The translations under genes and the position numbers were made by a program. DNA of 64,000 nt from a virus (Duplodnaviria > Heunggongvirae > Uroviricota > Caudoviricetes), in IMG/VR virus record IMGVR_UViG_3300035520_000451; one strand, written 5' to 3'. Shown piece after piece: positions 1,901 to 63,322 of this stretch. The notes below the pieces were generated by a model that worked only from the letters and a program-made list of their open reading frames with translations, had not been told where the DNA came from and did not search any database. How positions within the stretch are numbered: position 1 is the stretch's first letter; every line of letters starts with the position of its first letter.

Positions 1901-1911
1901 TTAATTAAACT

Positions 1912-27796: not shown

Positions 27797-27827
27797 TTTG
27801 AAATTAGATTTATTTTATATATATTTG
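27797..27827 (+). promoter_or_regulatory. Bacteroidota primary-sigma promoter (-33 TTTG, 19 bp spacer, -7 TATATTTG)
   Basis: TTTG at 27797-27800 and TATATTTG at 27820-27827 match the TTTG-N19-21-TAnnTTTG consensus, 60 nt before an ATG. Confidence 0.75.
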
Positions 27828-27886
27828 AATCGTTCAATTAGATTGTTTAGATAAAGAAAAAATTATAACATTAATGTTTATAAATT

Positions 27887-28213: not shown

Positions 28214-28225
28214 TTTTTGTGAACA

Positions 28226-28261
28226 GATGGGAGTATGTACTAGTTATATACTCCCATTTTT
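28226..28261 (+). terminator. Rho-independent terminator
   Basis: Stem GATGGGAGTATGTA / TATATACTCCCATT followed by TTT. Confidence 0.65.
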
Positions 28262-28273
28262 ACTATATACTAT

Positions 28274-31192: not shown

Positions 31193-33125
31193 ATTTCAAG
31201 ATGGTGGATTAGCTTCTCTTTTTACTACTTTTACTAATCCTGTAATGGCCTACCAAGCATAGTAGGCTGTTGCAGGAAATAGTAGAAGAAGAGAAAGCAC
31301 CAATGAATCAACTAGTAAATCTTCTGATAAAGAATCAACTAGTAAATCTGGAATTTCAGAAGAAAAAATAAGTGAATTAGTTGCTAAAATAGATGCTCTT
31401 CCTGGAGATAGAAATAGAATTCAAGCTAAAACTGAGCAACTTCTTACTATGGCAGATGGAGACCCCGCTGAAATGGGACATATTTATAGGCAGTGTGCTT
31501 ATGATATTCAATAGAGTGCTTTTATAAAAGATCAGTATGATAAAATTTATTCTAAATTAGATAAAAATAATGCTCTAACTGAGATTGTAGTTGATGGTGG
31601 CAATGTAATTGTACAAGATAAACACAATAATATTAGACAAGTAACTGCTTCTGAATATTTAAAAAATAGAGACAAATATAATCCATTAACATATTCTAAT
31701 ATTTTATATTTAAGAGCTTGGGATCCTAAATATGCCGGAAATACAGAGATACTTAGAATTGCATCTAAAGGTATTTCAATTTAGGATGTAAACTCTTATA
31801 TAAAAGACATTATATCTTCTTTAGGAACTTCGGAATCTACACAATCGGGATACTTGGTTAAAAAGGAGAATGACTTATATCAAGGAATTCAAGCTCTTCA
31901 ATAGGAAGATGCAGCTCGTTTGATTCAAGAAAAAGGAATGTCTTTAGATGGTTTATATAGCACCAAGGTTATTACTAAAGACTAGAAAAATCAAGCACAG
32001 GCAGCTTTAGCCTACATATATACGACTCTGCCAGAAGAGGCAAAAACTCTATTAGCGGTTAAATCTGGAAATCCGAATAGAGAAAAGGGAATTCAAAGTA
32101 TGTTAACATACTTAATTTCTTCTAAACTTACTAGTATTAATGACTTCTCTGTAGATTATGAAGGAACTCTAGAAAAAGTACTTAAAAATGGTACTAAGTC
32201 TTCTTCGAATTCTTCAAGTTCTTCTAATATTAGCAATGGTGATGCTTCATTTGATGATGATATTAAAACTGGCCCATATTATAATATGTCAAGATAGATA
32301 GGAGGTACTCCTACTACTGTAACTATAAATAGAGGGTCTAAAGGACAAATGCAAGTAGATGGTGTTTCGTATTCTTCAATTCCTGATAAGAATGGAGCTC
32401 CAGTTGGTGCTACTAGCTTAAGAACTTTAATGGATTCTGGATTAGCAGGAATTACAGTTAATCAACATGCTGTTACATTTGGAGATAGAGTTCTTAGTGA
32501 AGAAGACTTTAACAATACAATGTATAATGGTATGGGAGGTGTAATGACTTACTTACCAACTACTACATCTTCAAATGGTACTAAAATAGTAGATTTAGAT
32601 GCTATTAATAGATGGGAGAATTTCTAGAAAGACTTACGAGCTAAAAATATCACTATGGGAGATCCCAATAAAGCTCAAGAAATAGCATAGTTACTACATA
32701 AGAATAATCTTGATCGTATTATAAATCGTCAAAGTGGTGGTGTAGATTGGTCTTGCTTAGGTCAATTCTTAGTTGTAGAAGGATATAGTGTAGATAAAAC
32801 TCAAAGAGATACTAAATTTGGAGACAGTAAGTTTGTAGTTAGAGTTTCAGATGATGATGCTATGGATAGAATTGAAACTACTCTTTCTACCAATGATAAG
32901 AAAGATAACTATAAAATAGATAGAAATGAACTGTATGATTTTAATGGACATGATGATGTATATAAAGGATGTATTTACATTCCTATAACAAATAATTAGG
33001 TTTAGGCTATTACTGCTGAAGGACAACATTATAAAGAACCTGCAATGCAGCAAAAAGAACTTGAATTCCAGATGTGGAATAAACAATTTAATGCTAAATC
33101 TGTAAAATCTGACGTTGTATTATGA
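31176..33125 (+). CDS. Putative cargo/ejection protein (TAG=Gln)
   Basis: 649 aa starting MKIIPKFQDGGLASLF. The track ORFs at 32100 and 32349 are in frame. ATGA overlap with the next gene. Confidence 0.7.
31305..31349 (+). repeat. 18-bp direct repeat GAATCAACTAGTAAATCT, two copies (encodes ESTSKS)
   Basis: Exact copies at 31305-31322 and 31332-31349 in a Ser-rich linker. Confidence 0.8.
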
Positions 33126-36100
33126 AAGAAAATGATTGGATAGTAGCGAACATAAATAATCCTACATTTAATAATTAGGACTTTAAAGATGTATTTGATA
33201 TGAGTGTGGAGAATACCCAAATTCTTCCATACTCATAGTATGTTAACAGTACTTTTGTAACATAGAATGATTTATTTAAAGATAATAATGGAAACTTTAG
33301 CGAAGCTAAATTTAAAGATTTCTATAAAGATAATCTTACTAAATTTTAGTCTTTTAGTGAAAGTAATCCAGCAACAGATAATTTTGAATATAGTTTATTT
33401 GATACTTCCAGAAGAAAAAATTCTAGAGTAAAAGACCCAAATTTTAAATTTACTACTGTAGCTAATCCCGATAGAAATACTATTGGTATAGCAGGTATAA
33501 ACTAGGTTGAAAGAAACACTTTATCTTAGAGTGAATTAGCTTAGCAATCTAAAGTATGGGATTCTAAAAATCAAAAATGGCTAGATTATTCTCCTAATGA
33601 TAGAGCCTTAGTTAATAGTCCGATAGGTTGGATTAAAAATTTATTTGATGAACCATTAGTGCTTGCTACTTGGGATTCAGATGGAATTGATCCAAAAACT
33701 GGAGAAGAGCATTAGAAGGGATAGGCTAAGATAAATGAATTTGGGGATTATTATTATGAAACATTAGGTGATCGATCTTTAGTTGGTAAAGAAGTATTAT
33801 CTTCTTTTGACACTTTAACAGTAGATGGAGAAGGTCTTAACAAATATGATTGTTTTGATGCAGATGGTTTAGATAAATCTCCAGCAGGTGTTATAGCTTA
33901 GACTGCCTTAGCTGTACTTCCTATGTTCTGGGGGCCTTCTGCAGCTATTTATAGTGGAGCTTTAATAGCCAGAGAAATGGGCAAATCATTACCTATGTTA
34001 TATGGTATGGTTTCTTCAATTTGGGGAAATGAAAAAGACTCTCAAACATTAAATGCTATAGCTGCCTTTGGGGATAAACTTACAACTGGAACATCATAGT
34101 ATTCTAAAGAACACGTTTTTACACTTGAAAATATAGGTTCTCTTGTAGCAGATGTTGCTAATCAATGGGGACAACAAAAATTAATTGCTAATTCTATAAG
34201 TAAATTAAGAGGAGGAACTTCTGAATTGGAATTAGCTTATCAAAAAGCTACTGCAAGTTATGCCAATCAAAGTTAGGCAATGTTACAGTCAGGTGTTCCT
34301 AATGCAATGTCTTATATTGGGAATACAAAAAAATGGGCAGAAAGTCCTATTGGTAAGGCGGCTATTTAGAAATTTGTAATGCCTGTTTAGGATGCTTTAT
34401 AGAAAAAAGCACGTTTAGGAGCGGATGCTTCTCTTGTTTACATGGCTATTATATCCAATACGGATGTATATCAATCAATGCTAGAGCACGGTGCTAATAA
34501 AAGAGATGCTGCATTAGTAGCTTTTGGTAGTACTCTTGGTATGTTTTCTGTTGATAAATATTTAGGTCTTGGAGAAGTATTTTTTGACGAACTTTAGAAT
34601 GATACTAGAATAGCATTAAGAAATGCTATTAAAAAGGATGCTAATAGCGTTGCAAAAAGTATGTTCTAGGAAGGAGCTATAAGTAATCCTATTAGTAATA
34701 AATCTAGTAATGCAGTTAAAAAGCTTATATAGAAAGGTATTGATTTAGGAAAGAATTCTACTTCTGAGTTTATATAGAATTTAAAAGATCATTCTTTAGG
34801 ATTTGTTGGTAAAGCTATAGGTGAAGGTACTGAAGAGGTTGCAGAAGAATTAGTAACTGATCTTTCTAAACAATTATATGAATGGGCAGGAGAATTATCT
34901 CCAAATATATTCAATACTTCAAGACTTACTGATGTAGGTGCTTGGGAAAATATGGGGGCACGTTATGGTATGTCATTCTTTGGTGGTGCGCTTGGTGGTG
35001 GTTTATTCTATGGGGTAGATGCTTTTAAGAATGGACATTTTATGAGAGACACTACTAAAGATGAATTAATTTATTTAGTAGCCAATAAGAAAACCAAAGA
35101 TGTGCTTTCTGAACTTGAAAAATGGAGAGATTCTGGTAAATTTGGAAGTACTAATTTGTCTGCATCTAAATATGAATATGACAAAGATGGCAATCCAGTA
35201 TATTTATCAACTGAGGACAAAGCTGATTCTTAGAACGAATATGTTTATAATCGTTTAAGAGAGGGTGTTCTCCAATTAGATAATATCTTAAATACAACTA
35301 AAACTAATCTTAGTGAGTCAGAACTATTTGATCAAATGGTTTTATCTGAAAAGAGATTCTTAGATTTAAAAGAATTTCTACAAGATTAGTCTTATGTTAC
35401 AAGATATTAGGAACAATTTAGAGAAATTACTAGAAAATTAATTGATGCTGAAACGGATTTAAGTAAGGCTAATAGAACAGCGGACGGAACTCCTAATGGT
35501 GAATTACTTCCAGACAGTCCTGGAACTTAGGTGTTAAATGATCCTAATAGATTGCATAATATTGAGGAAGCTTAGAAGAAATTAGACGATTTACGTAAAT
35601 AGAGAGATTCTTTCTTAAAGGGAGAATAGTCTTTGCCTTATACTGAAAAAATGTTATTCTTTATAGATAAGAATCTTAATGCTCCTTTTATGTCTGCTAC
35701 TTATGATACTTGGTTACAAAATAATAAGCATAAAACTATTGATCAATTATCGGAAGCAGAAAAAGAAACTTATAAAAAAGAATATTTAGCTTATAAAAGA
35801 AGTGGATAGTCTCTAGATTTAGATTAGGCTTTTGATATTTATAAGCAAATGGGAGAAAAAATTAATCCTATATTAGATGAACTCTCAAAGAATGTTGACA
35901 AAGTAAAACAATCTTAGGAAGCTTTTTCACATTTAGATGATGCTATTGAAGAGGTTATGTAGCCTTTGTCTCCCGATATTAAATTAGAGGATGAATCCGA
36001 TGAGGATTTTGAATTTAGAAATGTTAAAAAAGAAGATGAAACTGATGAACAATTTATAAAGCGTCATGATGATAGAATTGAAAAGATTCAAAAATTACAA

Positions 36101-39100
36101 GACGAAAAATCAGAAGAATTTGCTAAAACAATTTCTAAAATGATTGACGATGCTGGTGAATATATAGATCCAACAACTCAACGTTATATTCACAGACTTC
36201 TTGTCACTAGACGTTCTGATATTGCTAATTGGTTAATATCTAATTATATAGATTAGAATATTTCTGATTCTAATATTAAATAGATATTTGCTAAATTAAA
36301 AAGTGATTTTAGTAATGCAGAAGAAGTTAAACAAAATTTGGAAGATTATCTTAATAATATGTATTTAGTAGCTCCAATAGAACCTATTAGAGAAGGATTA
36401 GAAGAGATGTTTTCTGATTTTGGATATGACCATCCCCTTACTAACCTTACCGATGTATATAATTTTGCAAAAGAGTTAGTATAGAGAGTTAAAAATAAGG
36501 ATCCTAAAATACAAGAAATTTTAAATAAGGAAGGAAATGAAGGACTTAAGGATAATGTAGAATCTTAGTTGGAAGCAATAAAAGGAATGAGTGATGAAGA
36601 TGCTATAGATTCTATATTAACATTTGATCCTAGTGAAGACTATATTTTAACGTATTACTTAGATCCAGAGTATGAGGATTTTCATAATTACGTTAATAGT
36701 TCTAATTATCTTGCAAATAAGGAAGATTTTCCAAACTATTTTAAAAATATCTTTGATAAAGATTAGGATTTAGGAGCTAATTTATAGCAACTTACAGCTA
36801 TAGACGATACTATAAGATAGGATACTTTAATTAAAATGTTTGACAAACTTCAAGATAAAGTTTCTAAAAATAGTCCTGTTATAGCTTTATTAAATAAAGT
36901 ACGTGTAGCTTTAGATCCTGAAAATAAAAGTATTGAAGAAATTTTATAGCAAATACATCAAAAATTTCTAGGAGAAAAGAATAGAGAAGATTTTAAAATA
37001 GAAGATGAAGAAATTGTACTTAATGAAGCTACTTTAATTTTAAAATCTTTAAAAGCGTATCTATATGCAGCTGGATTTGATGCTAATTATATATTGCCCG
37101 TTGGGCATAATCGAGCAATCAATGAATATGCAGAAAAACATAAAGATATTTTTAAAAATTATAATTAGTTGCCAACTTTAGATTAGAATACAACTGAAAT
37201 ATATGCTTTTGAAATATAGAAATATTTAAATGAATTGGATGGGGATAATCCATTTTCTTGGATTTCTTTATCTGATAATAATAAAATTAATAAAAGATAG
37301 AAGTTAATAACTGCAGACGAGAGATTTACTATGGCTAAAATAGATTTCTTTAGAGTTTTATTTAATCTTCCTAAATTTACTATAAATGGTAAGGAATATG
37401 ATTTATTAGAAGGAAAAGATAAAATTCCTGGAGATAAGCCTGCAGTTTTAGTACATAAATTAGAAAATTTATTCTTTATTAATTTACATAAGATTTTAAA
37501 TGATGGAATTTCTTTCAAAGAAATTCTTGAAAAATCTTAGATTTTAGAAACTTAGTTAGTAGATGTTTCTTTTAAAGCCTTATCAAATTAGGTTACATCA
37601 GAATTAAATGAAACTATTGATTATAGTAAATTTACTGACTTCGATAAATTTACCTATCTTCTAACTATTGCCGGAATTAGCTCAAATGAATACAATAATT
37701 TCATAAAATAGACTGTCGAAGAGTCCCAAAAAGAAGAAGATGTTTCTAAGAAAAAAGCTCCATTAACTATTTAGGAACATGCTTCTAGAATCGCTATGGC
37801 AACAATAAAAAGTCCTGAAATAATTTCTCAGGCTTGGGATTACGTAAGTGAACGATTAGGAGAAACTTCCTCAATTGTAAAACCTGTACTTGATCGTTTT
37901 GTATTTATAGACGGAAGTGCTGGGGTAGGTAAAACACAAGTAATTGCAAGAAATGCTATAAAATTTATTGGTTCTAAAAATATTTGGCTAAGTGCTCCTA
38001 AGGATACTCAAATATAGACTTTAAAGACAATTGCTCCAGATGGTACTTCCTATACTAGAAAAGATTTAATGGAATAGATTATTGGCGTGGAGGATTATAA
38101 AAAAATAATGTCAGATTTAGATAGTAATTCTAAAAAATCTGATTATTATACTTATAATAATATTCCTGGATATTCCACGACTTTAGAAATACTAGTTCCA
38201 TCTAAAATTAAAATAAATAAAGTTAAGGATGCTCCAAAAGCTGTAATAATTGATGAAATTACTCATTTTAGTGGAATTGAACTATAGATTTTAAATCTTT
38301 GGGCAAAAGAAAATAATATAAAAATTATTGCTTTAGGAGATACTAATTAGAACGGTTATACTAAAATATGTAGAAATATAGACCGTGAAAAAATTATGGT
38401 ATTACGTTCTCCTAAATTATCTATTTCTCTAAGAGATGTAAATGTATAGAAATCCGAGAATCTTTTAACTACTTAGAAAATTATTAATGAAATGTCTAAG
38501 TTAGAAGAAGATGATTCTAATTACCAACAAAAATTTGATAATTTAAAAGCTCAAATTCAATTTTTAGATTTTAGAGTATATAATCAAGATGAATTAAATG
38601 GAGATCTAATTACTTCTTCTATATCTAAATCCGATATAACTAAACTAAAGGGAGATATTGCATTTGTTGGAGATACTAATGGTACAGCTTATCAATAGTT
38701 AGTTGAAAATTATGACTCTAAAAAAATACATGTATTAAAACCCGATGAAATACAAGGTTAGGAGTTTGATTATATTATAGTAGACCAAAAATGGGCATTA
38801 TCAGATAATGCTTCTGATGTAGCTGTTTTTAATTTCTTAACTAATTTATATACTCTTATGAGTCGAGGTAAGTCTGGATCTATTTTTATTGATAATGGAC
38901 TATCTCAAATAATTGGAGCAAATAAAGAAAATTTACAAAAGAAATTAGCTCCAAACTTAAAGGATGCTATAGAACCTTTTATTAAAGCTAAATTAGAAGT
39001 ATTAAATTCTTTAGAATTAATTCCTAATGAAGAATTTGAAAAATTATACGGTGGGGAAACTGTTGTATAGCCAACCACAGAAGAAAAATCCGAAGAAGAA

Positions 39101-42100
39101 AATTAGCCTAAAGAAGAAAAGTAGGAGGGAAAACCCAATACAGAAGAAAAAACACCTAAAGAAGAAACTCCAACTACTGAAACACCCAGTTAGGAACCTT
39201 CAGAAGGATAGTCTGAATCTACAGAAGAATAGCCGGAGACTCCAATTATAGCTACTACTGAAGGAACTGCAGTATCTCCTACTTCTGCTCCAGCGTCACC
39301 TACTTCTACTTCTGAGACTTCAGTGTCTCAAGTTGAAGATGACTCAGTTAAACCTGTTACTGATACTATTATTATAGATGATGTACCTCCAGTAATAACA
39401 GATGAAGAACAATCTAAATTAAGAGAGGATATGCACGATATTCTTGAAGATAAAGATCTTGAAGAGCTTGATATAAAAGTAGATAACTTAATATCTTTGG
39501 AAAGCTCTCCTATAAGAATTTATGGATCTGCCCATCTTGCTGGTTTAAATCGTGTTGTAACTAAAGATGCCTAGGGTAAAGAAATTGTATCTTATGTAAA
39601 TCCTAGAAAAGCTATAAAATCTGACTTGTAGATATTTACAGATAAAGACACAATAACAAGCGGTGCTGAATTAAATGGGTTAGTCACTACTTTATTAGGA
39701 TTAAAATCGGTAATCCTTTATAGTAAAAGTTTAGATGACTTGCCTAGTTCTGTAGCTTCTGTAGTTAATGCTAAACATCTTGAACAAATAAAATATAAAA
39801 TAGAAATTCGTCCTAGAAAAGATTCTGATAGTTTTGTAGGTTTCACAGGATTAAAAACAGACGGGCCTGGAAACAATAAAATAGAAATAAATGGTCTAGT
39901 TTATACTTTAGTAGGAGAATTCAAAAATAATAAAGAAGAAACTTGCAAAATAACTTTAGGATTACTAGCTAATCCCGATAGTTTCTATGTTTCCGATCAA
40001 GTAAAAGAAAGCGATAAACCAGCAGTAAAAGCTAAAATTAGATAGTATAGGGCACTTTTTGATGCAATGACCTAGCAATATAAAGATAATGGGAATGTAT
40101 TTTATAAAGATGTAACTCCAATATTTTCTAGCCTTACAAGTATTAGAAAATTTACTGGAGTTGGAGAATATAAAAAACCAGTCCCAACTGTAAATCTAGA
40201 AACATTTAGAAAAACACATCCCTATACTGTTATTTCTGATCCTTACATTTATATTGGAAGTAACTTTAACGGAGTAAATAGTGATGCTATTAGAGGAAAA
40301 GCTGTGGTATTTGTATCTAATGACACTACTTTAAATCCAAATGATCTAATGCAAATTTATTTAGATCAAAAAACAGCTATTAATGCAAATAGCCCTCTTG
40401 AATCTGGAAATAGTGTTAGATTATTGCCTTTGGATAATGCTGGAATTCCATTTAGTACTCTTATACAATAGAACTATCACAGTGTTTATAATACTACTCA
40501 GAAATTACCAGACGGAACCTAGATTATTAAAATTTTTCCATTTGAGGAAGATTATATGGGAGCTAGAATGCTGGCGGCTCTTTGGAATTATCGAGCTAAT
40601 TTATATAGTTTTATAAATGCTGTAGATTCTTTCTGTAAATAGAATAATTTAGAGTATAAAGATCTAGTTAGAATTGCTAAATATGCTGATGCTAAATGGT
40701 ATAAAGAAAATAATGCAGAGGAAGTAGATGAAGAAGTAGACAAAATTTTATCAGAAACTACTGCAACTTAGGAAGAACTTAAGTTACTTTCAGATTTTAA
40801 TGATAGTTTAGCATCTAGAGTACGACAATTTCGAGTAGGTGGTAGCAGACTTGGTTCGGGAACCTATTTAAGAGAACTAACTAATATTAGTGCTGATAAT
40901 GGATTTTATAAAGGACTTAATAAAACTCCGGTAGGAATATATATAACTCCTTTTACAGCTCAAAAATAGTATAAAATGTTAGATTATCTAATATCAACTG
41001 TACTTAAAGATACTGTCAAACTTAAAACAAATGATGGAAAGGAGTGGCCTAAAGATAGACAAATTACCACTAAAGAGGGATTTAGAAATTCAATATCTGG
41101 ATTAACTTCTTCTTTAATTACTGGATCTGCATTATCTTTTACAGAAGATGGAGTTAATTATGAAATATAGTTTCCAAAGAAAGAAGCATTAAAACATATT
41201 CCTAATGTACTTTAGTATATTTATAAAAATCTTTATAGATATTAGTATAATGAGGATTATAATATTGCTCCTATTGTTTTAAAAGACGCTAATGATAAAA
41301 CTAAAGATATAAAGTTTTATTATGGAGAATTTGTAAATTCTAAAAGTGATATTTACATACCTAGAGATCTCGGGGAAGATTTTCATGATAATTCTTTTTA
41401 TGATTTAATTTCTCTAGCATTCCATGGTACAACTGCAAATCCTACTAGAACTAATTGGCACGCAACTGATGCATATTTTCCAAATGGTATTTATATTGAT
41501 CCAATGGGTGCTGAAGTTGTTGGAGAAATTAATAATTAGGCAATGTTTAGAAAATGTATTACTAACGAAAAATTATTAACGGTTAATGCTGATATTGACA
41601 TGCCTATATTTGTAGTTACTTTAAATGAATTACAGAAAGCTGTGGAATCGACTTAGGTAGAAGAAACAGAAGAACCCCCAATAGAACCCACAGAAACTCA
41701 TTCTCAAGAGACTTTAGATTTAATAGCAGAAAGTTAGCAACTAGGTATTTCAGACGATCAAATAAATAAAATTAAGAAGAAAGCTGAAAATGACGATGCT
41801 ATCTAGGAAGCTCTTATCCCACTTATAAATAAAGAATTATCTAAGAATAGCGAAAGATTATTTAGCCAATAGTTAGTTACCGGTAATGAAATATATCATA
41901 TGTCAAAAGGAGAATCGGGAATTACTAGAGTAACTATTCTTGAACAAATTTCTGAAAAGGCTAATTTAAAAGAACCTATTAAAAGTATTAATCCTGAAGA
42001 TATTTCTTGGGAAGATAGTACATTAATATTAACTTTACCAAATGGTACAATATTAAAAGTAATAAGAGGTAATAAAAATGGTTTAAAAGTCGAAAAAATT

Positions 42101-42469
42101 GTTAATAAAGCTATAAGTACAGAAATTGAAGAAGCCGCTGAAAAAGCTAAAAATAATTCAGAAGTAAGTGAAGAAGAACTAATAAAAATACAACAAGCTA
42201 AATTAGAATATCTAAAATCCTATATAACAGAATGGATAAACAGTAATTAGGAGCTTATTGATACTTTTAAAATGGATCCTAGTTTAATAGAATTTGTAGA
42301 TTTCTTAGAAGGCGGCTACAATAGTTATGGTAATGAATCTAAAACATCTAAAGATTATTCAGATAGTATTAATAAATTAATATCATTTGTGGAAGAATAG
42401 GTAATGCTTGCTGGAGAAGACGCAGTTGATGAATTATATGCAGGACTTACCTCCAAGACAAATTGTTAA
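33122..42469 (+). CDS. Giant virion-associated protein with membrane-like segments and an SF1 helicase core (TAG=Gln)
   Basis: 3115 aa with 12 track ORFs in one frame. Walker A GSAGVGKT (37913), Walker B IIDEITH (38246), GDTN* (motif III, Gln via TAG), QG*EFD and YTLMSRG. Ends in ..KTNC*. Confidence 0.8.
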
Positions 42470-42486
42470 TAAAATAAAAATTATTT

Positions 42487-48400: not shown

Positions 48401-50658
48401 TTGGTAGACAACTTAATCCTGAAGATGACATATCTTATGCAGTAAATGTTACATAGGCTAGAGACTTAGCTCCTGCTAGAATATCTTTTGAATATGACGA
48501 AGATAAAGCTCCAAATGATGCTATTTTAGGGAAACAAACTGATAATGAATTTGGATCTGATGTAGCAGTTATTTTAAATAATAAGAAAGAGAATGTGCAT
48601 TTCTTAGGAACCACATAGGATATTGAGCAATTTAAAAATTGGTTTGCACTTTAGCAATAGTCTGAAACTCCTAATTTAGAATCTATAAGTTAGAATACGC
48701 TAGATTAGGTACGAGTAGTAATGTAGCAAAACCCGGAATTAGCAACTACTCTATAGGAAATAAATGCAACAAATGAAGATTATGCTCAGTACATTCGCAG
48801 TATTTATCCCAATAGTGTTGAAAAAGATATATATTGGCACGGTTCTAATTCTGATTATTCTAGAGGTTTCGACAGTGCTGTTAAAACTAAAGGATCTGGG
48901 GCACCTGAAGTTGGGGATGAGTTTTATGTAGCCAAATAGCCATATTCTATAATTTAGTATGTAGATGGTTAGAATAGAACTGGTTAGGATGTGGAAGGTT
49001 TTGCCCACTGGAATAAACTTTATTGGGAATTAAAAGAAATTATGTCTAATGGGCGTCGATAGAATAATGATTGGAAAGATCTTACTATTGACGAAAAGAA
49101 TGTTAGGCAAGAAATTCCAAATAAAAAAGGAGAACTGGATTTAAAGAATGGTCATGGAAAAACATTAAAAGAAAGAAAAGCCAGATATGGTTACTAGGAC
49201 AAAACTGATGAAGAATTCTTTAAAGATATATTTGGTATAGAATATGGTAAGGATACTTTCAATACTTGGGTTGAAAGAAATCGGGAAATATTTAAGAAAA
49301 AATTAGAGGATGGCAAAGTTCCAGGAATTTATGCAGTCGTAATAAATACTGTTAATCCTATCGTAGAAAGAGGTAAAAATACTTACTACGAAGAAGAAAG
49401 AGGATTGAAGACTTTAGCTAAGGCTACTACACATAGAGTCTCTACTAATGTATTCTTAACAGAACCAGTAGTGTAGTCATTTTTAAATAGAGAAGATTCT
49501 AATTTTAATGCTACTTAGAATAGACGTGAAATTTAGAAAATGTTTGATGAACTAGAAAAAGGATTTTACAAAGGTAGAAAAATATATAATTTAAAAAACG
49601 AAGCTGCAGAATTAGTAATTTCTAATATGTATGCTTCTAAGTACAATACTTCTGGAAGATCTTTAGCCGAATTAAAATCTTTCGGTGCTAATTATTTTAA
49701 ACCTAGAAGAATTACTCCTATTATTTCCAAACATTATGATATGGCATTTACTACCGGTAGCGGTAAACATACTTACATTACTTTTAAAACTCCTAAAGTA
49801 GATCCAGAAAATGTATTTAAACCTAGAAATATTGGTTGGAAATATACTTTAGAAAAAAATAATGAAGTATATGCTACCACAAAAGATAATTAGATTTTAT
49901 TTAAAGTAGGTAAGAATATAAAGACAAAAGATATAGTTTATCAAAAAGGTAAATTTTATAGTGCTAAAGATAATACTGAGATTGTAGATCCAGAACTTAG
50001 ATACTATAAAGGCGCTGTATATAGATATAAAGAATATGTTTCTAACTATTAGATAGTTGAAGTTAAAGGAAATCATCCTATAACCTATAATCTAAGACAT
50101 TTTAATATTTAGAATATGTTATCAGCCTTTGGAAAGGATACTGGATTTACAGATTCAGAAGAATATTAGAAATTAGATAAAGACTAGAAAGTAAAAGCTC
50201 TCAGAGATAAACTTATGAATGATGTATATAAATAGATTGGAAGTATTATGACTAAAATGTATTATGAGAATAATTATAATGGCATAAGACTTAATGATTC
50301 TATGTATACATCATCAGCTGACCATATTAAGAGTATTATTCCTCATATAAACATTACTGGAAAAGCTGGAGAATTTTTAAATGAAACTCTAGAAGAATAT
50401 TTAAAACCAGCTAAAATAAAAAATGATCATATTAATATAGATACAAAGAAATATAATGCAGCTTTAGTAAATTATTATTCACAATTTGCAGAGGAAGTCT
50501 ATTCTTCTTTCTTGAAATCTTTATATTTTACAGCTGCTCGTATCCCTGCTTAGACTTTACAGTCTTTTATGTAGATGAAAGCAGTAGCTTTTACGTAGAG
50601 TAGCAAGAATATATGCTATGTAAGCCATTGGCAGACCTGGCTTTAGGGTTCTGACTAT
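42487..50658 (+). CDS. Virion (crAss-like) multi-domain RNA polymerase, exon 1 (2724 codons, TAG=Gln)
   Basis: Starts MGYC. Motifs EDAHDGSAYINP, KRKFPGSG and AARIPA*TL*SFM*M. The exon ends at ..WL*GSDY, the first half of the catalytic DxDxD motif. Confidence 0.85.
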
Positions 50659-50911
50659 TGATACTACCATACCAGAGTAGTATGACATAACCCCTTCTAG
50701 TTAAACTAGATAAAATATTGTAGTCATAAAATCTCGTGAATTGCGGGAAACTCTTTAAGTTTATATATACTAAATTAGAGTAGAAATACATCTAATGGCA
50801 ATAATTAATTACTATTGGTATAGTAAAAAGTATATAAAATTAGACAATCCGCAGCTAAGCATCCTAGGTAAAATTTATATAAATTGATTAGTCAATTGAT
50901 AAAATATTTAC

Positions 50912-50919
50912 TATATTTG
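50912..50919 (+). promoter_or_regulatory. Possible intron-internal -7 promoter element upstream of the LAGLIDADG ORF
   Basis: TATATTTG in an AT-rich insertion between the Q and R elements, about 76 nt before the ATG at 50996. No canonically spaced -33. Confidence 0.4.
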
Positions 50920-50995
50920 CAAGGATGAAAGTTCACAGACTATCCCGAAAGGGAGTAGAACTTTTATTCAATGTTTAATTTAAATTATTGAATAA

Positions 50996-51697
50996 ATGGC
51001 AAGAAAAATTCAAAAATCACTTAGTAAAGAACAAAAAAGATTATTAATAGCATTATTACTGGGAGATGGCACAATCTCTAGTAATTATGTTTTTAAACTT
51101 TCTCATTCTGTAGAGCAACGAGAATATTTAGAATGGAAAGTTGGATTACTTAATAAACTCGGTATAAAAAATAATGGAATTAAGGAGTATATATCTACAT
51201 GCGGATATAATAAAGGTAAAGGTGTTTTATACTCTCAAATATCTTTACATTCCACTATTAAAGCTTTAAGACGCTCGGTGTATACTCCAAAGAAAACCTT
51301 TACAAGAAACCTATTGAATTGGCTGGATGCTCAAGGTCTTGCCATATGGTTTATGGATGATGGTTTTATTAATATAAATGAATCAGAACAAAGAAATGGA
51401 TCAATTCAAAGAAGTATTAAAATATCCACATGTGTCAATGAAGAAACATGTAAGATGATAATAGAGTACTTTAAAGATGTCTGGGATATAGAATTTAGAC
51501 CTTTTATAGAAAAATCTAAATTATATTCTATTTCAGTACGTACTAACAATGATTCTGATAAATTTATTAAAATAGTAAAACCATATATTGAACAAGTTCC
51601 ATCTCTTTTATATAAAATACGAGAAAGTTCTACTAAGAAAGAATTCATTGCACAGCATAGTGCTGTTTCGAAGCGCGAGACACTTGATAACAAGTGA
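50996..51697 (+). CDS. Intron-encoded LAGLIDADG homing endonuclease (two-motif, LAGLIDADG_2-like)
   Basis: 233 aa with motifs LLIALLLGDGTI and GLAIWFMDDGFI and no in-frame TAG. The stop codon abuts the intron S element. Confidence 0.9.
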   Translation: MARKIQKSLSKEQKRLLIALLLGDGTISSNYVFKLSHSVEQREYLEWKVGLLNKLGIKNNGIKEYISTCGYNKGKGVLYSQISLHSTIKALRRSVYTPKKTFTRNLLNWLDAQGLAIWFMDDGFININESEQRNGSIQRSIKISTCVNEETCKMIIEYFKDVWDIEFRPFIEKSKLYSISVRTNNDSDKFIKIVKPYIEQVPSLLYKIRESSTKKEFIAQHSAVSKRETLDNK

Positions 51698-51738
51698 TGA
51701 TATAGTCGAGCTTATGTTGAAAGACATAGGGTATACTG

Positions 51739-54700
51739 GATATTGATAAAGCATATATAATGGGATATGAATTTGATGATAATGGAAAATATTTAGGATG
51801 GAGTAATTTATTTGATTATTCCTCTATAGATACTCTTAGAGCTTCTGAATATTTACCTATACCAGAAGGTGTTAAATATGTAAAAAGCGATACTGGCTTT
51901 GATATTTCAGATTATATTAGTAAAATTGCTTCTAAAACAACTAAAGTAGAAAAGATTAGAGCAGAAGCTGATTTGCTTAGAGTTTTACAAGATAAACCTA
52001 TTACTTATTCTAAGGGTAAACAATATCAATATATAACATGGACTGTAGACGATAATATAGCTCAAGATATAGTTAATGATTTACAAAGCCATCAGGATAC
52101 AGAAATAACTCCTAATATGATTTAGAGATGCTTAAAAAATTCTGTTTCTTCTTCAATTTCTAATATTATTTAGAATTTAAGAAATATGGACTAGGCATAT
52201 TCTCCAATTGCAATGTCTTCTATACGTAAGGCATCAGAACAAAGTCCTAAAGGTAGTAAATCTGAAAGAATGACTTTAATGAATCCTCTTACTAAATTCT
52301 TAATGCAAGAACAAAATATGGTAGGTAAAGGAGTTATTGGTATTACAGCCGTTGGAGAAAAAGTATTCTTTAATACTAGCCACTATTGGAATGAAGGATT
52401 AATAACTGGAGATCCGATAAGACTTAGAAATATGTATTTTAATTAGACTTTTAATAGAATACAAGGAAGATCTACTGGTAATATGTAGTCCCTCACTAAG
52501 AATACTATCGCAAATATAAATTTCGAAAATAACGAACAATTAAGATTATATTTTAATGCAGCTTCTGATATTGATGCTGAGTTAAGAGCCAAATATAATA
52601 TCACAGATGCAGATATTGAAAATAAAACTGAAACATGGCAAGCTTATAATAAGGAATTAATTGAGGCTGTTAGAAATATTTAGGAAAATGGTATTTATGC
52701 AGACGATTTAATTAGTCAATTATTATCTGCGGCAACAGATAATGCTAAGGAGCTTATTCTTGCGAAGATTAATGCTGGAACTAATTTAGCCAAATGTTAT
52801 TTACATCTTATTATGATGGGGTTCAGTATTAATGATATAGTTAGTTTCATGACTAGTCCTGTTGTATCTATAGCAAATGATCTTAATAACGTAAATATGT
52901 TTGATGAATATTTGTACAAAACAAATATGAATAAGGTTATAAGATGGATGCGAGGGCACATTCCATATAAATAGTTTTTAAGTGGTACTTCTAAAGTTCT
53001 TGATGAAGAATATGGAAATTATGTATCACAAGCCTTATATAATCAAGCTTTTGCAGCTCTTAATGCTAAAGTTTCTAAAGCATTACATGATGCTGGGTAT
53101 GGAATGGAAACTTAGACTATTACCAAGAAAATGAAAAATGAAGAGGGTGCAGAAACTGAAATTTCAGAATCTAAATTAGTTCCAAAAGAATATAACTTTG
53201 ATGAATTATTAAAAGATTTCTTCTTTGCTAAAATATCTGGAGAAATAGACTAGGAATTATTTGATTTCTTAGATACTTCGCAGCAAGCAACTAAGTCTAA
53301 ATTAAATAATGGAATAATGGCATTATCTGATTTTATTGAAAATTTAGTTGATAAGGTTAAGGATTCTGGATTAACTGAATCTGATTATATTGCAGACTTA
53401 GAAGAGTTTGAGCATGTTTATAATTTAGCTACTGAAACAAGTGAATTGGGATCTACTTTATTAGGATTTAATTAGGGTATTCCAACTTCTATTGAAGAAT
53501 TAATAGCTTTAAATATTAGAATTAATAAAATAGTACATAATAAAGAAATGATGTTTGCAATAAGTGCTAAATAGTTTGAAAATGAAGATTATTTTAATAA
53601 TTTAGTACAAACATTAAAAGATAGAAATTCTAAATATTCAGAAGAAGAAATTAGAACAATTTTGACTACTGCTAAAGATTTAGGAATTGTAAATACTTTT
53701 AGTTTTTAGAAATGGTTAAATAATCAAAACGGATATCGTAAAGCTACTTCCGATTATTATAATTTAATAAAAGGAACTTGGAATGTATTTGACATAATTG
53801 ATAAATTACCTCATTTTAAATCTATATTTGATATTCTTAAAGCTGTCTACACTTTTGAATAGACTTGTATAAAAAAGACTGCCCTTGTTGAAAATTTAAC
53901 TGCAAAATTATTTGATGACTATGATGTTATTGACGATCTTAAAATAAAAAAATTAATTGATTATGTTGATGATGTTTTAATATTAAAGTTCTTAAATGAG
54001 CAGCAATTTAAATATCCTATATTTAAGGATGATAAAATAATAGACTTTAACTGGGATGATCAAACAGTTACAAGTGAATTTGATCATATAGTAGTAGATT
54101 CTGAATATAGTAGAGGGTCTTTTAAAAGATTAATAGAAGAAAAGTTATTTTCAGAATTAAAACAAGGTTATTATTCCGACGTTGTAGATGGTAAGGTAGT
54201 GAAGAAAGAATTTCCTATGGACAATAAATTTATAAGGAATTTAGTATTTGACTTAAATAATGAGAATCAAAGATTTTTAAGATTAAATCTCGATATGTAG
54301 AATGTTGTTTCTACAGCTGAAAATGAAGGTAAATATCAAGAATGTTTAAGTGATTTTATTAAATTACAAAATTATGAATTAGGCGGGAGACCTTTATCGG
54401 ATTGGTTTATGTTATATAATTTAGTAGTTAATAAAAATAAATTTGGTTCTGATAGATTGACTACTTTATTTGGAAACTTCTTAGGCATAATAAAAAATGA
54501 TTCTATTATTAAATCATTTATGAAATATGTAGGAGATTTAGATTTTGTGGATGCTAAAATGCCAGAATCTATAGCTGAGTTAGAAGAATGGGGATTTAAT
54601 ATGGATGATGCGCGTTATAAAATTGCTCCTGTAATTTCTGAAACTTAGGAAGGTAGTCATAATGAGGATATAGTCAGAGAATACATAAATGGCAGAATTA

Positions 54701-54969
54701 TGTATAAACGTAAATATAAAGGACAATATAGAAGTCCTAAAGATTTAGTTCCAGATGTTGATTATTATGCAGATTAGAAAGAAAATGATGCCATAAAGTA
54801 TAATAGAATTTAGAATTATAATGATTATGGTTGCATAAAAACTCCTTTTGCAAATTTAAAAATTAATGCAATTGCAGGTTTAAGATCTAATGATGTGGCA
54901 TAGATTGTAGGAATTTTAAATAATTTAATAAAGAGAGGTTTAATAATTATTAATACAGAAAATTGTTAA
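51739..54969 (+). CDS. Virion RNA polymerase, exon 2 (1076 aa plus stop; total protein 3800 aa)
   Basis: Begins DIDKAYIMG, completing GSDYDIDK. It includes LISQLLSAATDNAKELIL.KINAG and ends ..NTENC*. Confidence 0.85.
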
Positions 54970-54970
54970 G

Positions 54971-57337
54971 ATGGGATGTGATATAGTATTCAATATAAAT
55001 GGTATTCTTAGGGAGGGCGATGAAGCTCTCCCTAAGATTGTTATAGAAAACAGTAACCTTATTCCGAAAACAGTAAATTTAACAAATATAGCTAAGGTTT
55101 TAAATTCAAATACAGAAATAAAAGAAAACTTAATAGATATTATTGAAAATTTAAAAAAGTATGATAAACGAGCTGTAGAATTAAAGGATTTAAAAGATGG
55201 TATAGTAGGTAATTGTAAATTTCATACATTACAATATGCAAATCCTGATGGGTTTCCTAATATATCTGAAGATCCTGATATACTTCTTATAGACGTTTTT
55301 GATTTTAATGGTATTAATATTAGAGATGTTATATATAAGAAAAGTAGTACAGGGGGTTTAGTGTACGTAGTATAGAATAGTCCAGGAAGTATTAAAAAAT
55401 TATATGCGCATTTAAGAGCAAAAAATAGTGTATTAACCAGTTACAAAGAAGATGATAGAATTTCGGCAATAAAACCAATAGTAGAAAAAGCTTTAAAAAA
55501 GAAATTTAAAAGTTCTCAGGACTTGTTAATAGATTTTTTAACTAATAATGCTCCATATAGAACTTCCCCCGTTGGACGCGGAACTTATGGATTACTTACT
55601 GAAACTATTAGGACTTTAACTAGTAACTCATATATAGGATATAGCCAACCTTTAGATATGGAATTAAACGCTAGAACTGATAAAGTAAAAGATTCTAATA
55701 GTAGTATTCTTACTTATGATTAGCTTGAACTTATACTTAAATAGTTTTTTCCCAATATTAAATTAAAAAAAGGTTGGAAAAAGGATGAACAATTCGTAAA
55801 GGATTTATTTACAGAAATACAAAAAAATTTAACCGAATTATCTTGTAAAGTATAGAGTATAAATGAGGATGCTATAGTTTTAAAAATAGCTTTTCAAACA
55901 TTAGATAGTAAATTAAATCTTACTTATGATTCTATTAACGAATATACTACGAAAGTAGAAAATTATAGAGGATTTACTATTTATAAATATATTAAAGATG
56001 ATAAAACATCTTATATTTATAGTAGAGGATTACTTGCTCCAACAGATTAGCCTAATGAGTTTACTAATATGGCTCAAGCAAAAAAAGCTATAGATATTTT
56101 ATATACGGATTCTAAAAGAGGATCCTTTAAGAAACTATTTGATATAGGATTACGGTTTCCAGGAAGTTATAATAGAACTTTAGAAGTAAATAATAATATT
56201 TTTCATATAAGTGGAAGTGGTATTCAATTACTAAATATTGATTTAGATAAAAATACACATTTAAACTACGATGAATATACAATGCTAAGATCTGATTAGA
56301 CCTTAGAAGACTTTTATGAACACTTTAAAGAACAATTAACAGAGTCTTAGTTTTTGAGTTTAAAGAATATTGTTAATAGTATAGAATCTGCTGGAATATT
56401 TACCTATTTAATAAATCAAGAAACTGGAGATTCTATAGAAGATAGAAAATTAACAAAAGAAAATGCTGATAAATTTAATAGTATTTTAATAACTATTAAA
56501 AACGCTATAGACAATAATAATTATTTAAGATATTATGTTTAGAATTCCCATAAAGTTGAATAGGCAGAAAATAGTTATAAACAATCTAGTTATATTTTAA
56601 ATGTAATTCCTTTATCTGACGATAAAATTACTGTAAACAGTAAATATAAAAGACCTTAGCCGATCATAGGATTAATTGATGAAGTCGTAGAACATTTAAC
56701 GGAAAGATTTAATGTAAACGCCAAAGTGCTCACATAGGATGAAGTAACTACTTAGTTCCCAGAAGTACCTGCTGGTACTAAAGCTTTTATTCGGAAGGGT
56801 AAAATATATATAAATGGAAGTGTTGCTACTTCTGCAGACGCAATTCATGAATACACACATTTAATTCTAGGTGCTTTAAAGGCTTCCAATTATCAAGCAT
56901 ATGAAAAATTACTTGGAAAAGTAATTGCAACAGAAAAAGGTCGTAATTTAAAATAGTTTTTAAAAGCTAAAGTTTATCCAAATTTAGCAGATATTGACGT
57001 AGCAGAAGAAGCTTTTGTAAAACTATTTTCTGAATTTATATCTGGTAAAAACTCCTCTGAAATATTTGATACTAATAGATAGGAAACTAGTGACGAAGCT
57101 TTAGAAGAAACTAAAGAAGAAGTTGATAAACTTCTTCCAAGAATTTTTACATTGGCAAAAGAGGATGATATAGATTCTATATATAAAGGAAAATTAAATA
57201 ATGTTTTTTTACAATTTAATAAAGATATTGGAAAATCTGCCACAGGTTTAGATTTTGAAACAGGAAAAGTATTCAGAGAGGCATCTAATTGGATAGCTAA
57301 AGAGATAAAGGAAAAGAATATAATTGAAAAATGTTAA
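54971..57337 (+). CDS. Large protein with a zincin-like metalloprotease motif (TAG=Gln)
   Basis: 788 aa starting MGC. AIHEYTHLILG (HExxH at 56846-56860) is followed by DVAEEAFV as a candidate third ligand. Ends ..IEKC*. Confidence 0.8.
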
Positions 57338-57338
57338 T

Positions 57339-60300
57339 ATGGGATGTACATATACTTTTAAAGCTGATCCAAATAACAAAAAACATAGTTACTTAGATCT
57401 TATTGAAGAATACAGAAAAAAGAGAAATGCAAAAACTGCCAATGATTTAGTACTTAGCAGAGATGCAGCATTAATAACTTAGGAAGATATTGTGTCTAAA
57501 TTAGTAGAACTTAGGAAAGAAGGATTTTCAAAAAGCAATACATCATTCTTTGATGGAGAACCTATAATTTCAGACAATGATTCTATAAGTGGTCAGGAAT
57601 TTATTGATTCCAATCAATTTACTCTAAATGGAAAACCTCTAATTTATAAATTACATGATTCTGATTATATTTCTGAGACCGCAACAGCATTAGTATCAGA
57701 AGGATTAAGTGAAGAAGAAGCTAAAGAAATTGCTCAAAAAGAAGTAGATAAATGGCAAATAATTGCAGATGACGGTACAGATTTACATATTCTACTATCT
57801 AAAATGAGTTCTAAAGATTACGATCGGCAAGATTTTGAGAGTGATGCTAAAGGAACTAAATTTGAAGCCGTAGCAGGAGAGCTTTGGGATAGTTATATTA
57901 CTTTTAAAGAAAAAACTCTTGGTGGAATACTCAGAAAGAATGGGGGACAGCATTCCAGAATAATATATAATTTAAATATAAAAAATAAAATAGAAAATAT
58001 AGACAAAGATTTATTTGGACATATAGATATGGTTGTAGTAGATGCTTCTGGAGATGTACATTTATTTAATTTTAAAACAACCACTAGTACTATATAGCCA
58101 CAATCTGTAAAGCTGGAAAAGTATAAATATCAAATGGCTTTACTGAAACAAATGTTGGCAAGTTAGGGTATTAGTGTACGTCACGCTACTTTAAATATTG
58201 TTCCTGTTAAAATAAAATATAATGATGATTTATCTGTAGTAAAATCTGCAATAATGCGAGACACTCCTATTGAATTGACTGTATTTAATGGAAAATATGT
58301 ATTTGGCAAATATGATAAAGTTGCCCGTAATTTTATAAAATCTTCTGTAGTATTAGATTCTATAAACGATGAAGATGTTGATATAGTAAATGAGCAACTG
58401 AAACTTATATTTCCAGCTAGAGATATTCAAGCCGATGGAGTTAGATTAACTGCATTAGAATGGGTTAAAAAGAATAAATCTCATATTTTAGATAGTAATA
58501 ATCCTGAATATGCTTATTAGTTAGAATTAGGGCAGGATAAAATTATTCCCATAAAATCTAATGCAAAACCAGAAAAAAATACCGAAATTTTAGAGCATGT
58601 AATTAGAAATGGAAAAGAGTTATTTGATACTAATAATGATGTTGTATTACACCGTCTTTTAAAAGATATTAAAGCTGGTATTAATACTGGCATTACTTCA
58701 TTTTTAACTGATTCTGCGTATGCTACAAATGGAGCTTATTTACATAAAATATTAAGTAAATATTTTGTTCAGAAATCTAAGGAAGAGGGTTCTGATTGGG
58801 AATTATTAGAAAACGATACTCTTAATAGCGCTGGAATTATTCTTATTAAAAATAAAATAACCCATCAATTAGATGTAATTACTTTAAGTACCTTTAATTT
58901 AGGAACTGAAATAAATATAGGTAAAAGAGGCAATACTGTATTGGGATATTATTTACCCGATAATAAATCTGGAAGTTTATTTAATTATCGTGCAAACTAC
59001 GGTAATATTGAAGCGGTTAGAACAATGGTTCTTTTAAACCAAGTTCTGCCGAAAATAAAAGGTGATTTAATATTGGGTAAATTACAAGTACTATCACTTA
59101 GGAATGGAGGTCAGGGAATTCCATTTAGCATAGAAACACTATCAAAAGAGTGCTTTACCCCTATTATTCAATATGTAAATACTAAATTACCAAATACTAC
59201 TATTAAAAATAACTTTGGACAATATTATTATATAAGCAGATTTTAGACTTTGCTGTAGGAATATGAATCGATTATACAAGATAACAAGGCTTCAGAATCC
59301 GAAAAGTAGCAATTAATTGAAACAGGATTTGGGGCATTAGCATCTGCTGAAACAGTCGAGGCTAAAATAACAGCATTAAGAGAAGTTGAAAAAGCTTTAA
59401 AAGACGGATTTCCGCAACTTGACACTACTGATTTTTAGGTTCTTTTAAAAGATCCTTCCTTTAAAAAAATAGCTCTTTTATACTAGTAGGTTGTTAATGC
59501 TATTACCTACTATACTGTTGGAGAAATTAGTCCTACAGAAAAAGTACTTAGTGGTATGGATAGATATGGTTTTGTAAGTGGTAGTGTTCCAAATAGAAAT
59601 TTTCGTATAATTGTTGATTTATATACTAAAACTATTAACTCTATAGCCGAGTAGGCTGAAAATAAATGGGTGCCAATTCGTAAATTATTATATAAATATT
59701 ACGATGATATTGGATACACTAAATTATAGAATGCTACTATTGGTAATTAGGCTTCGTAGTTTGAAGATTTATATAGAAAAGATAATCAAGGGCATAATTT
59801 ATTAAGATTGTTAAATCCTTACGATGTTAATGATATGGCTTAGATAACCAGCCATAAAAGTGTTAAATAGGAATTCTTAAAAAGAATTTTATTTGAATTT
59901 GCAAAAGTAAGGTATCCAATGATGGGAATATCTTTTAATTTTACAAGTGTGGAAGATCCAAATTTACAAGCTTTTATTAAAAATCATTCTGATACTTATT
60001 TTAATATTCCTCTAGAAAGAGCTTCTAAATCTACTCGCCTGTAGAAATATTCTATAAAAGAAAAATTATCCTACGCTAAAAATTTAGCCATGGAATTATT
60101 AAAAAATCCAAAAAAAGGAGTAGAAGAATATATTAATGATATAGATAATAAAGAAGAATAGGAATTACGAGATGTTAGCATTAAAGCTATGAAATTATAG
60201 AATAAATTTTTAATAGGGGAACGAGTTAAAAGAAATAACTATATGGAAGGATTAACTCGTGAAGGATATATTTCTGAATATGGAGAAGGATATTTTGAAA

Positions 60301-61949
60301 CTAATCTAGAAAGTTTATTAGCAGATTTTATAGAACGCGATATTGAAACTAGAGAATTAAATAAAGCTTTAATCGTTATTAAAGGAGTTTTATTTTAGTT
60401 AGACATTTTAGGAGAAAATCCAAATATGGAAAAGGTAGTTAAGTAGACTATTTCAATGATTGATGACTTCGTAAAAGTAAATGTTTTCAGAACTTCTATT
60501 ATGGATGAAGCATCTCAAAGAATAGTTGGATTAACTACACCTCTTAGAAGACTAGTATCTAATACTTTAATTGCTGGAAATATAAAAGGAGCAGTGCGAG
60601 ACACTTTTGAAGGCGCTTGGCAAAATACTATGAGATCTTTAAATCATTATCAAACTAATATATCTCCAAAATCTTTAACAAAGGCTTACGGCACAGTAAT
60701 AAAAAATTCTTTTTCTGATAGTCGATCTATTAACATAGTAAATCAATTATGCTAGATATATAGACTTTCAAATATGGATATATCTAGAATTTCAGAAGGA
60801 TTAAAGTCTGAAAGAGGAATAACTAATTATTAGAACTGGATGTATTCAACATTACGCGCCCCTGATTTTCTTAATAGAATGACTTTATTTGTTGCTAAAT
60901 GCTACGAAGATGGAGTTTATGATGCTTTTGATATTAAAGATGGGAAATTAGTTTATGATTGGAAAAAAGATGAGCGTTTTAAAATATTTGCATCAGGTAA
61001 TAAAAGTAATCCAAAATATTATGAATAGATGGGAGCATATTTTAATGCCATACGAGCATATAATCAAGATCATCCTGAATAGGCTCTTCAAATGAGCGAC
61101 GACCTTCCAATGCCTTATAATTTTCAAGAAGTTAATGTAATTAGACATGCAGCTGATACTATATATGGTTCTTATGATAAAAGTACTAGAGCGGCATATG
61201 AACACATGGCTTTGGGAACTTTCTTTGGAATGTTCTCTACCTGGATGAACGGCATCTATGCTAATTATATGTTAAAACCAGGACAATATTCTAATACCGA
61301 ATTTAAACTAGAATAGGATTTAGATGATTCTGGGCGTCCTTTATTTTTTGATAACTCTGGCAGATTAATATATGCAGTACAGGATAATGGAAGTACTAAA
61401 TATTATTATGACGGAACAGAAATAGAAGCTACAGAAAATATAACTCATATTTAGCCAGTATTAAAGAAAGTCCCAACAATAGTTTAGGGTATAATGTATA
61501 CTTTATATGATGTTTTTAAAGCTGTTCCATAGGGAACTTTTAAAGAAGATATTTGGTTAGATCCTATGCAAAGAAAAAATTTAATGAAATTACTTACAGA
61601 TGGATTAGCTTGGTTATTCTTTGGAACTCTATACAGTTAGGTATTGAATCCAGCATATAGTAATTTTAAGAAAGAACAGATGCCAAAAAATAATGCTTTA
61701 GTAAATGCCGCTGTTGAAATTTTATACGGAGGATCTTCTAGATCTTATGATGGATTTAGAGGTATTTATAATGTATTTGAATATTTGGGAGAAAATACAA
61801 ATCCTCCTATATATTCTTAGAATATAAAACTAATGACTGATTTATTGAAAGTTTCGTTAGGTGAAAAAGCTGCGACCGATATGGCGGTTTAGAATATAGC
61901 CGTGTTAAAATCATTTCAAGATACTTATAAAGCAGAAAAGAAAAAATAA
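57339..61949 (+). CDS. Large virion-associated protein with an N-terminal PD-(D/E)XK-like domain (TAG=Gln)
   Basis: 1536 aa starting MGC, with six track ORFs in one frame. Motifs GTDLH..., GHIDMVVVD.SG.VHLFNFKT and Y.YQMALL. Confidence 0.75.
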
Positions 61950-62562: not shown

Positions 62563-62743
62563 ACAACATTTCTAAATTATCATCAAATGAACAATCCTCA
62601 TTATAATCAATAGACCATTCTTTATTTGCTCCAGAATTAGAAATATATCCAGCATATAACTTTCCATCTTCATAAAATACTCCTAATTCACAAGATTCAT
62701 CTGGTGATAATATTGTACAAGATCTTGTATCACAAATTTTCAT
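62531..62743 (-). CDS. Hypothetical protein
   Basis: 70-aa acidic ORF overlapping its neighbours. Confidence 0.55.
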   Translation of the reverse strand: MKICDTRSCTILSPDESCELGVFYEDGKLYAGYISNSGANKEWSIDYNEDCSFDDNLEMLYDEILNKSEF

Positions 62744-63320: not shown

Positions 63321-63322
63321 AT

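Follow-up and report, generated by a model that had tools for sequence, protein, structure and literature searches.

Paired terminal cysteines at the junctions of giant cargo proteins suggest a head-to-tail protein chain in crAss-like phages

A 64,000-nucleotide (nt) stretch of the IMG/VR virus record IMGVR_UViG_3300035520_000451 (Caudoviricetes; a crAss-like gut phage), referred to below as the window, encodes a block of four giant proteins, here called A, B, C and D, of which B is a predicted virion RNA polymerase of the crAss type and C carries a zincin motif. A cysteine (Cys) is found on both sides of all three junctions between consecutive proteins, and the two outer ends of the chain have none. 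This arrangement suggests an undescribed way of tying proteins end to end into one thread, with injection as its probable purpose. Judging from the sequences, it is fairly probable that disulfides tie the proteins head to tail, which would yield a chain equivalent to the polyprotein of those relatives in which the module is fused.

Genes A–D are readable only with TAG taken as glutamine (Gln). Under translation table 11, no giant open reading frames (ORFs) exist in the region; reading TAG as Gln reveals an unbroken series of giant genes (Table 1). The last residue is Cys in A (codon 42464–42466, stop 42467–42469), B (codon 54964–54966, stop 54967–54969) and C (codon 57332–57334), and the N-terminal Cys are Cys4 of B (42496–42498), Cys3 of C (54977–54979) and Cys3 of D (57345–57347); A lacks an N-terminal Cys and D has no Cys near its C-terminus. 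An in-frame TTG lies upstream of gene D at position 57324, but the ATG at 57339 is favoured by the homologues. The preliminary description of the window had reported complementary terminal Cys at the three junctions, with none at the outer ends, and a rarity of Cys in the giant proteins. Both are borne out: interior Cys make up 0.25% of A–D, and from this frequency our own arithmetic gives a joint chance of ~7 × 10−15 for the six terminal Cys (three as the last residue and three at positions 2–4). The length of 3800 residues given there for B is correct once an intron, which had gone unmentioned, is spliced out.

Table 1. Genes of the cargo block and the predicted intron in the window.
Feature	Position	Strand	Remarks
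Gene A, first chain protein	33122..42469	+	3115 amino acids (aa), TAG read as Gln; starts MKENDW, ends KTNC
Gene B exon 1, predicted virion RNA polymerase, residues 1–2724	42487..50658	+	starts MGYC
Predicted group I intron interrupting gene B within the catalytic motif	50659..51738	+	Rfam match, endonuclease ORF, exon joint
Gene B exon 2, residues 2725–3800	51739..54969	+	ends NTENC
Gene C, zincin-motif protein	54971..57337	+	788 aa; starts MGC, ends IEKC
Gene D, last chain protein	57339..61949	+	1536 aa; starts MGC, ends EKKK

The terminal Cys are retained in homologues on a large scale. When viral contigs were scanned with C alone, no relatives were returned, and an exhaustive search with the same protein yielded 109 near-full-length cluster representatives; among GenBank phages, relatives of C and D were restricted to MT835470, MT835492 and one fragment. 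All 109 C homologues have a Cys no more than three residues from the C-terminus (2.0% expected by chance), and 107 of them have one among the first eight residues (1.4% expected), so that chance, at about 1.4–2%, is ruled out as the source of the pattern. Among the A homologues, 63 out of 64 carry a Cys within the last three positions from the C-terminus, and none of the 64 has any in the first ten residues; the one that lacks a C-terminal Cys, P0206 (2789 aa), comes from a 9.8-kb contig and has probably been cut short. The mirror image is seen in D, where the first Cys occupies position 3–6 in 43/43 homologues and the last ten residues are free of Cys in every one of them. Since the stand-alone C homologues carry a C-terminal Cys without exception, a D-like partner would be expected always to follow in that large clade. 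Inside the cargo proteins Cys is depleted (0–0.25% vs. 0.85–2.0% in other ORFs of the same loci). In a 64-sequence alignment of C, the invariant residues are M1, C3, N615, H626, E627, H630, Y644, E679, E680 and C788, i.e., the terminal Cys are conserved as strictly as the HExxH motif (H626, E627, H630) with its downstream glutamates (E679, E680).

The same module, composed of a giant first protein, a DFDxD polymerase and a zincin-motif protein, is present in phi14:2 (gp67-gp66-gp65) and crAss001 (gp47-gp50-gp49), and all three cargo proteins have been found in virions by mass spectrometry (PMC10172136; bioRxiv 10.1101/2020.03.07.982082). The cargo blocks of both phages obey the same terminal-Cys rule as the window, from which they differ in that the window has four proteins, with a stand-alone zincin-motif protein C followed by D, and is recoded (TAG read as Gln), with gene B split by an intron. 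For comparison across relatives, every break in the module was scored for a Cys within ~9 residues of the C-terminus of the upstream protein and within ~8 residues of the N-terminus of the downstream one. Both facing ends carried Cys in 45/45 junctions of about 24 phages, which span the window clade, the four Crassvirales families Steigviridae, Intestiviridae, Suoliviridae and Crevaviridae, and the cyanophage Leptolyngbya phage Lbo-JY46. Systems of two, three, four and five proteins all follow the rule. Closure of each protein on itself, N- to C-terminus, was rejected because in two-protein systems each protein carries one Cys.

C homologues at about 40% identity keep MGC at the start and E(K/R)C at the end, their sole invariant Cys; their contigs also read TAG as Gln, with B ending in TENC and D starting with MEC, and the Cys persist there through TGT/TGC and GGA/GAA changes. 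Relatives with 27–48% identity retain all three junctions, with synonymous TGT/TGC changes, and the same is true for two complete genomes from IMG/VR (167 and 154 kb), where some proteins have one more residue after the C-terminal Cys (NCK, ECK, PKCD). In MT835470, which uses the standard code, the only Cys of A (2970 aa) is five residues from the C-terminus, C contains two Cys in all, at position 3 and at the last position, and D has Cys3 only. Farther away, phi14:2 has four Cys in 5398 residues, located at the last residue of g067, at position 3 and the penultimate position of g066, and at position 3 of g065. Locus L022 has four Cys in 6223 residues, all of them at junctions. The two giant proteins of Lbo-JY46, an unclassified cyanophage outside the order, contain two Cys in 4300 residues, namely the last residue of the first protein and Cys4 of the second. 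Four further divergent metagenomic loci also obey the rule, and cr3_1 was examined as a member of the subfamily of p-crAssphage. Two apparent exceptions are annotation artefacts: gp051/gp049 of cr116_1 are exons of one gene that an intron interrupts at the catalytic motif, and the boundary between gp055 and gp056 of IAS virus falls in a run of N. The annotated start of crAss002 gp33 (MVLDYS; L012:5270-5368) is probably wrong; Met33 begins MSCTPS, which fits an M-x-C start.

The position of the Cys follows the way in which the module is divided. The preliminary description had proposed asking whether terminal Cys follow the order of the proteins where genes are split or fused differently, and they did so everywhere this was examined. 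The five-protein system of MT835492 has two proteins in place of A: A1 aligns with residues 1–1410 of the window protein and A2 with residues 1447 onward; the break reads ACKVIA at the end of A1, whose sole Cys lies five from the end, and MQSNC at the start of A2. Unsplit A proteins have no Cys at this site, which is a variable linker. Conversely, A and B are fused in cr1_1 and cr109_1 (the cr1_1 protein, 4551 aa, has Cys only at 4026 and 4548), and B is fused with the zincin-motif protein in crAss002 (gp33), cr3_1 (gp24) and cr127_1. The fused joints of both kinds are without Cys, and the remaining break keeps its Cys pair. The fused forms crAss002 gp33, cr3_1 gp24, cr1_1 gp19430 and cr109_1 gp53 contain the same domains in the same order as the window, with a peptide bond where the window has a Cys pair. 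The window thus represents the most subdivided common form, and only MT835492 is more divided. These observations bear on whether the terminal Cys might bind a third partner (portal or capsid protein, or DNA) or homodimerise rather than pair with each other. Cys counts alone cannot assign pairing, and crAss001 virion proteins form several heterotypic disulfides. Nevertheless, we regard both readings as improbable, as they leave unexplained both the asymmetry of the outer ends (no N-terminal Cys in 64 first proteins, no C-terminal Cys in 43 last proteins) and the fact that a new split adds Cys to both new ends while a fusion removes both.

The cysteines also persist when partner genes are read in different directions. 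crAss001, DAC15, IAS virus and cr116_1 each have the gene for the first protein on the strand opposite to that of its partner, and the Cys pair is kept. Thus, gp47 of crAss001 (2341 aa) lies on the opposite strand from gp50 and gp49 and has one Cys (LRCNS at the end), gp50 starts MSKRC and has a Cys nine from its end, and gp49 (1349 aa) has one Cys (MAKKC). The earlier proposal of a link in gene order therefore has to be modified: the module order (A, RNA polymerase, zincin-motif protein, D) is conserved, but gene order is not, and Cys pairs track chain breaks, not genes. The same cases bear on the DNA layout TGT-TAA-N-ATG-GGA-TGT, which had been pointed out at 54964–54979 and 57332–57347. The layout is indeed present but carries no significance of its own; it simply reflects which residues are conserved, together with a spacer of 1 nt, and relatives vary the junction DNA (TGC, GAA or GCA codons, a spacer of 3 nt, or one more lysine codon). 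With identical take-off and landing codons 10 nt apart at two window junctions, it could recall a ribosome hop between Cys codons of the T4 gene 60 type, or a coupling signal, of which the Cys would be a by-product. Such an origin is hardly credible: in many relatives the Cys lies 1–8 residues before the stop, spacers and codons vary while the residue stays, and partner genes on opposite strands exclude translational explanations. Programmed translational bypass was rejected on the same grounds.

A further set of explanations assigns the Cys to ligation or processing, by a thioester or native-chemical-ligation-like reaction or by intein-like Asn-Cys cleavage. Many upstream ends do read N-C (KTNC, TENC, RINC), and the fused relatives are thought to be cut into parts (bioRxiv 10.1101/2020.03.07.982082). 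However, the Asn is not conserved (IEKC, QEIC, KYCK), 1–8 residues often follow the Cys, and no intein or Hint domain, nor any Pfam family, was found in C or D; we consider this reading very unlikely. A relic of a cleavage site was discarded, since fused joints without Cys mean that Cys is not a cleavage-site residue. In an AlphaFold2 model of C (predicted local distance difference test score, pLDDT, 83.8), both Cys lie outside secondary structure on short free tails of 3–8 residues which adjoin ordinary secondary structure. A split intein or trans-splicing was rejected on account of these short tails and the lack of a Pfam family in C and D.

In the disulfide scheme, A, B, C and D would be made separately, each junction-facing end presenting one Cys on a short flexible tail, and a disulfide would join the C-terminal Cys of one protein to the N-terminal Cys of its successor. 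The four proteins would thereby become one linear chain in the order A-B-C-D, about 9,200 residues long and with the topology of a single fused polyprotein, and it would set the 1:1 stoichiometry and the order of the cargo. Each partly unfolded protein would trail the previous one through the narrow tail channel, and thiol reductants of the host cytoplasm could then dismantle the chain. All the features taken together favour a pairing of the facing ends that replaces the continuous peptide. A disulfide is the simplest chemistry, given one thiol per end, no other conserved ligands, the purging of stray Cys and the intermolecular disulfides that crAss001 virions contain between several different proteins (Bayfield 2023, PMC10172136). 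A purge of interior Cys would be expected, because stray thiols would scramble disulfides. Mass spectrometry places gp47, gp49 and gp50 in the crAss001 virion, from which they can leave through the tail only if partly unfolded, and the structural work on this phage left open how cargo exit is ordered (PMC10172136). As the homologues in crAss001 and phi14:2 are packed in the virion, a chain would fix their stoichiometry at 1:1 and their order. The bond itself and its disulfide nature we infer from the sequences; thread ejection and reductive release we infer from the proteins being packaged, having to unfold partly and having no known ordering principle. Taken as a whole, a redox-reversible pseudo-polyprotein may well be at work, i.e., a Cys-joined thread of fixed order, at most about 9,200 residues long, whose order of entry is hard-wired, which host thiol reductants undo and in which gene splits and fusions exchange freely with Cys pairs.

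Several considerations weigh against disulfides. Virion assembly takes place in a reducing cytoplasm, and the gut in which such phages live is anoxic. In crAss001, the particles whose disulfides were seen had been purified in air, and searches of the available genome (~72% complete) with profiles of thiol oxidase (Erv1/ALR), thioredoxin and glutaredoxin gave nothing above the cut-off. The facing ends share similar motifs at all junctions (M-x-C-x-hydrophobic-x-hydrophobic at the start and hydrophobic-x-E-x-C at the end), which leaves the choice of the right partner unexplained. With 23 interior Cys in the window proteins, the purge is weaker than in phi14:2 or crAss001. Finally, the glutamate (Glu) at position −2 from the C-terminal Cys, found in 84/109 C homologues, could be a metal ligand instead.

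The last point leads to an alternative in which the facing ends pair as above, but through a metal bound in common (for example Zn or Fe, with two thiolates and a carboxylate as ligands) or through a Cys-dependent non-covalent plug and socket. The conserved flanking motifs are consistent with it, including the Glu and an aspartate after the N-terminal Cys (32/107), and neither a reducing cytoplasm nor an anoxic gut would prevent a metal site from forming, nor would it call for an oxidase, which the incomplete genome failed to reveal. On the other hand, each end of the C homologues has one Cys, with no conserved histidine or second Cys nearby, and the Glu is not universal at the ends of A and B (RINC, TKLC, IINC). 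Moreover, a two-thiolate site would be a weak tether for chains unfolding under force, and the strong purge of interior Cys better fits the avoidance of disulfide scrambling. A metal site or plug and socket is thus a possible but rather unlikely substitute for disulfide links.

For A homologues, precomputed Pfam assignments comprise AAA_30 and AAA_19 (PF13604 and PF13245), P-loop domains resembling superfamily 1 helicases; the first protein of the chain may be a helicase or translocase. In B, the DYDID motif at residues 2723–2727 aligns with DFDID of phi14:2 gp66 (1361) and DFDVD of crAss001 gp50 (1483) within the conserved polymerase context RIP.Q..GSD(F/Y)D(I/V)DK.Y(I/V)M. Comparison of B with proteins of the gp66 type, gp66 itself having a solved structure, yielded local BLAST matches alone (E-values, 2 × 10−5 and 3 × 10−4 in a set of 12 sequences), and searches of PDB sequences with the catalytic region of B, by phmmer and with a six-sequence profile, returned no match at E ≤ 1. 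Based on the aligned catalytic motif and synteny, with no significant database match, B is annotated as a putative crAss-type virion RNA polymerase. Foldseek comparison of the C model with PDB gave weak matches to zinc-metalloprotease domains (E-value about 0.01, template modelling score about 0.1). No counterpart of D was detectable by BLAST in crAss001 or phi14:2.

The closest working analogy is provided by AB toxins, in which a single interchain disulfide holds a chain during its unfolded passage via a narrow channel and cytosolic reduction releases it. The likeness is one of mechanism only, without homology: the two toxin chains are cleaved from one precursor, whereas the window and its relatives are phages with separately encoded giant proteins, three to five in the module. 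Among phages, the N4 virion RNA polymerase with its partners, T7 gp14/15/16 and P22 gp7/16/20 are likewise packaged proteins expelled through the tail ahead of or with the DNA, and to our knowledge no covalent head-to-tail link has been described for any of them. Disulfides observed by cryo-electron microscopy in the tail and portal vertex of crAss001 also join different virion proteins of a crassvirus (PMC10172136); they staple rings and hubs side by side, whereas in the cargo proteins, which the structure does not resolve, Cys sit at the very ends and would give a linear chain. The fused module has been proposed to be a single chain that is later cut into parts (bioRxiv 10.1101/2020.03.07.982082). 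Terminal Cys are mentioned neither in that paper on the phi14:2 polymerase nor in the crAss001 atlas (PMC10172136). Full-text literature searches likewise returned no description of a linkage through terminal Cys. Crassvirales are the most abundant human gut phages, and order-wide tying by Cys would make the question of how their cargo is ordered and delivered directly testable. Such tying would suggest how the cargo comes to enter in a set order and ratio, and would explain why the module still functions whether it is encoded in one gene or in as many as five. The terminal-Cys rule is also an aid to annotation, as it predicts true starts (crAss002 gp33) and flags false gene ends that arise from introns (cr116_1) or assembly gaps (IAS virus).

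Gene B is interrupted by a predicted group I intron, with exon 1 ending after the DY of the catalytic DYDID motif. The match to Rfam RF00028 (E-value, 8.4 × 10−6; 31.6 bits) is under the gathering score of 50. The intron contains an ORF (50996–51697) for a LAGLIDADG homing endonuclease (Pfam PF03161; E-value, 8 × 10−23) with no in-frame TAG. The exon joint (GSDY|DIDKAY) was placed by alignment to an uninterrupted homologue; U closes exon 1 and G closes the intron, the ends looked for in a group I intron. Differing endonuclease ORFs are found at or near the same polymerase site among relatives, and these include a 371-aa helix-turn-helix-type ORF (L001:5346-6461), a LAGLIDADG ORF in MT835470 (L007, reverse strand, 23282–24049) and gp050 of cr116_1 (L014:10680-11327). 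Together, they suggest repeated homing into the most conserved site of the RNA polymerase gene. A T5orf172/NUMOD1-type endonuclease-like ORF is located directly 3′ of gene D in one relative (L002:17012-17785).

In the rest of the window, in-frame TAG codons are restricted to a long plus-strand ORF block (4568–61949), and neither the ORFs at the window start (2–3788) nor the minus-strand ORFs at its end (62730–63868) contain any. No tRNA genes of any kind were found in the 64 kb, so the suppressor of TAG must sit elsewhere or be supplied by the host. Immediately upstream of the cargo block, at 24224–31192, there are four consecutive ORFs (412, 579, 190 and 985 aa) that are free of Cys.

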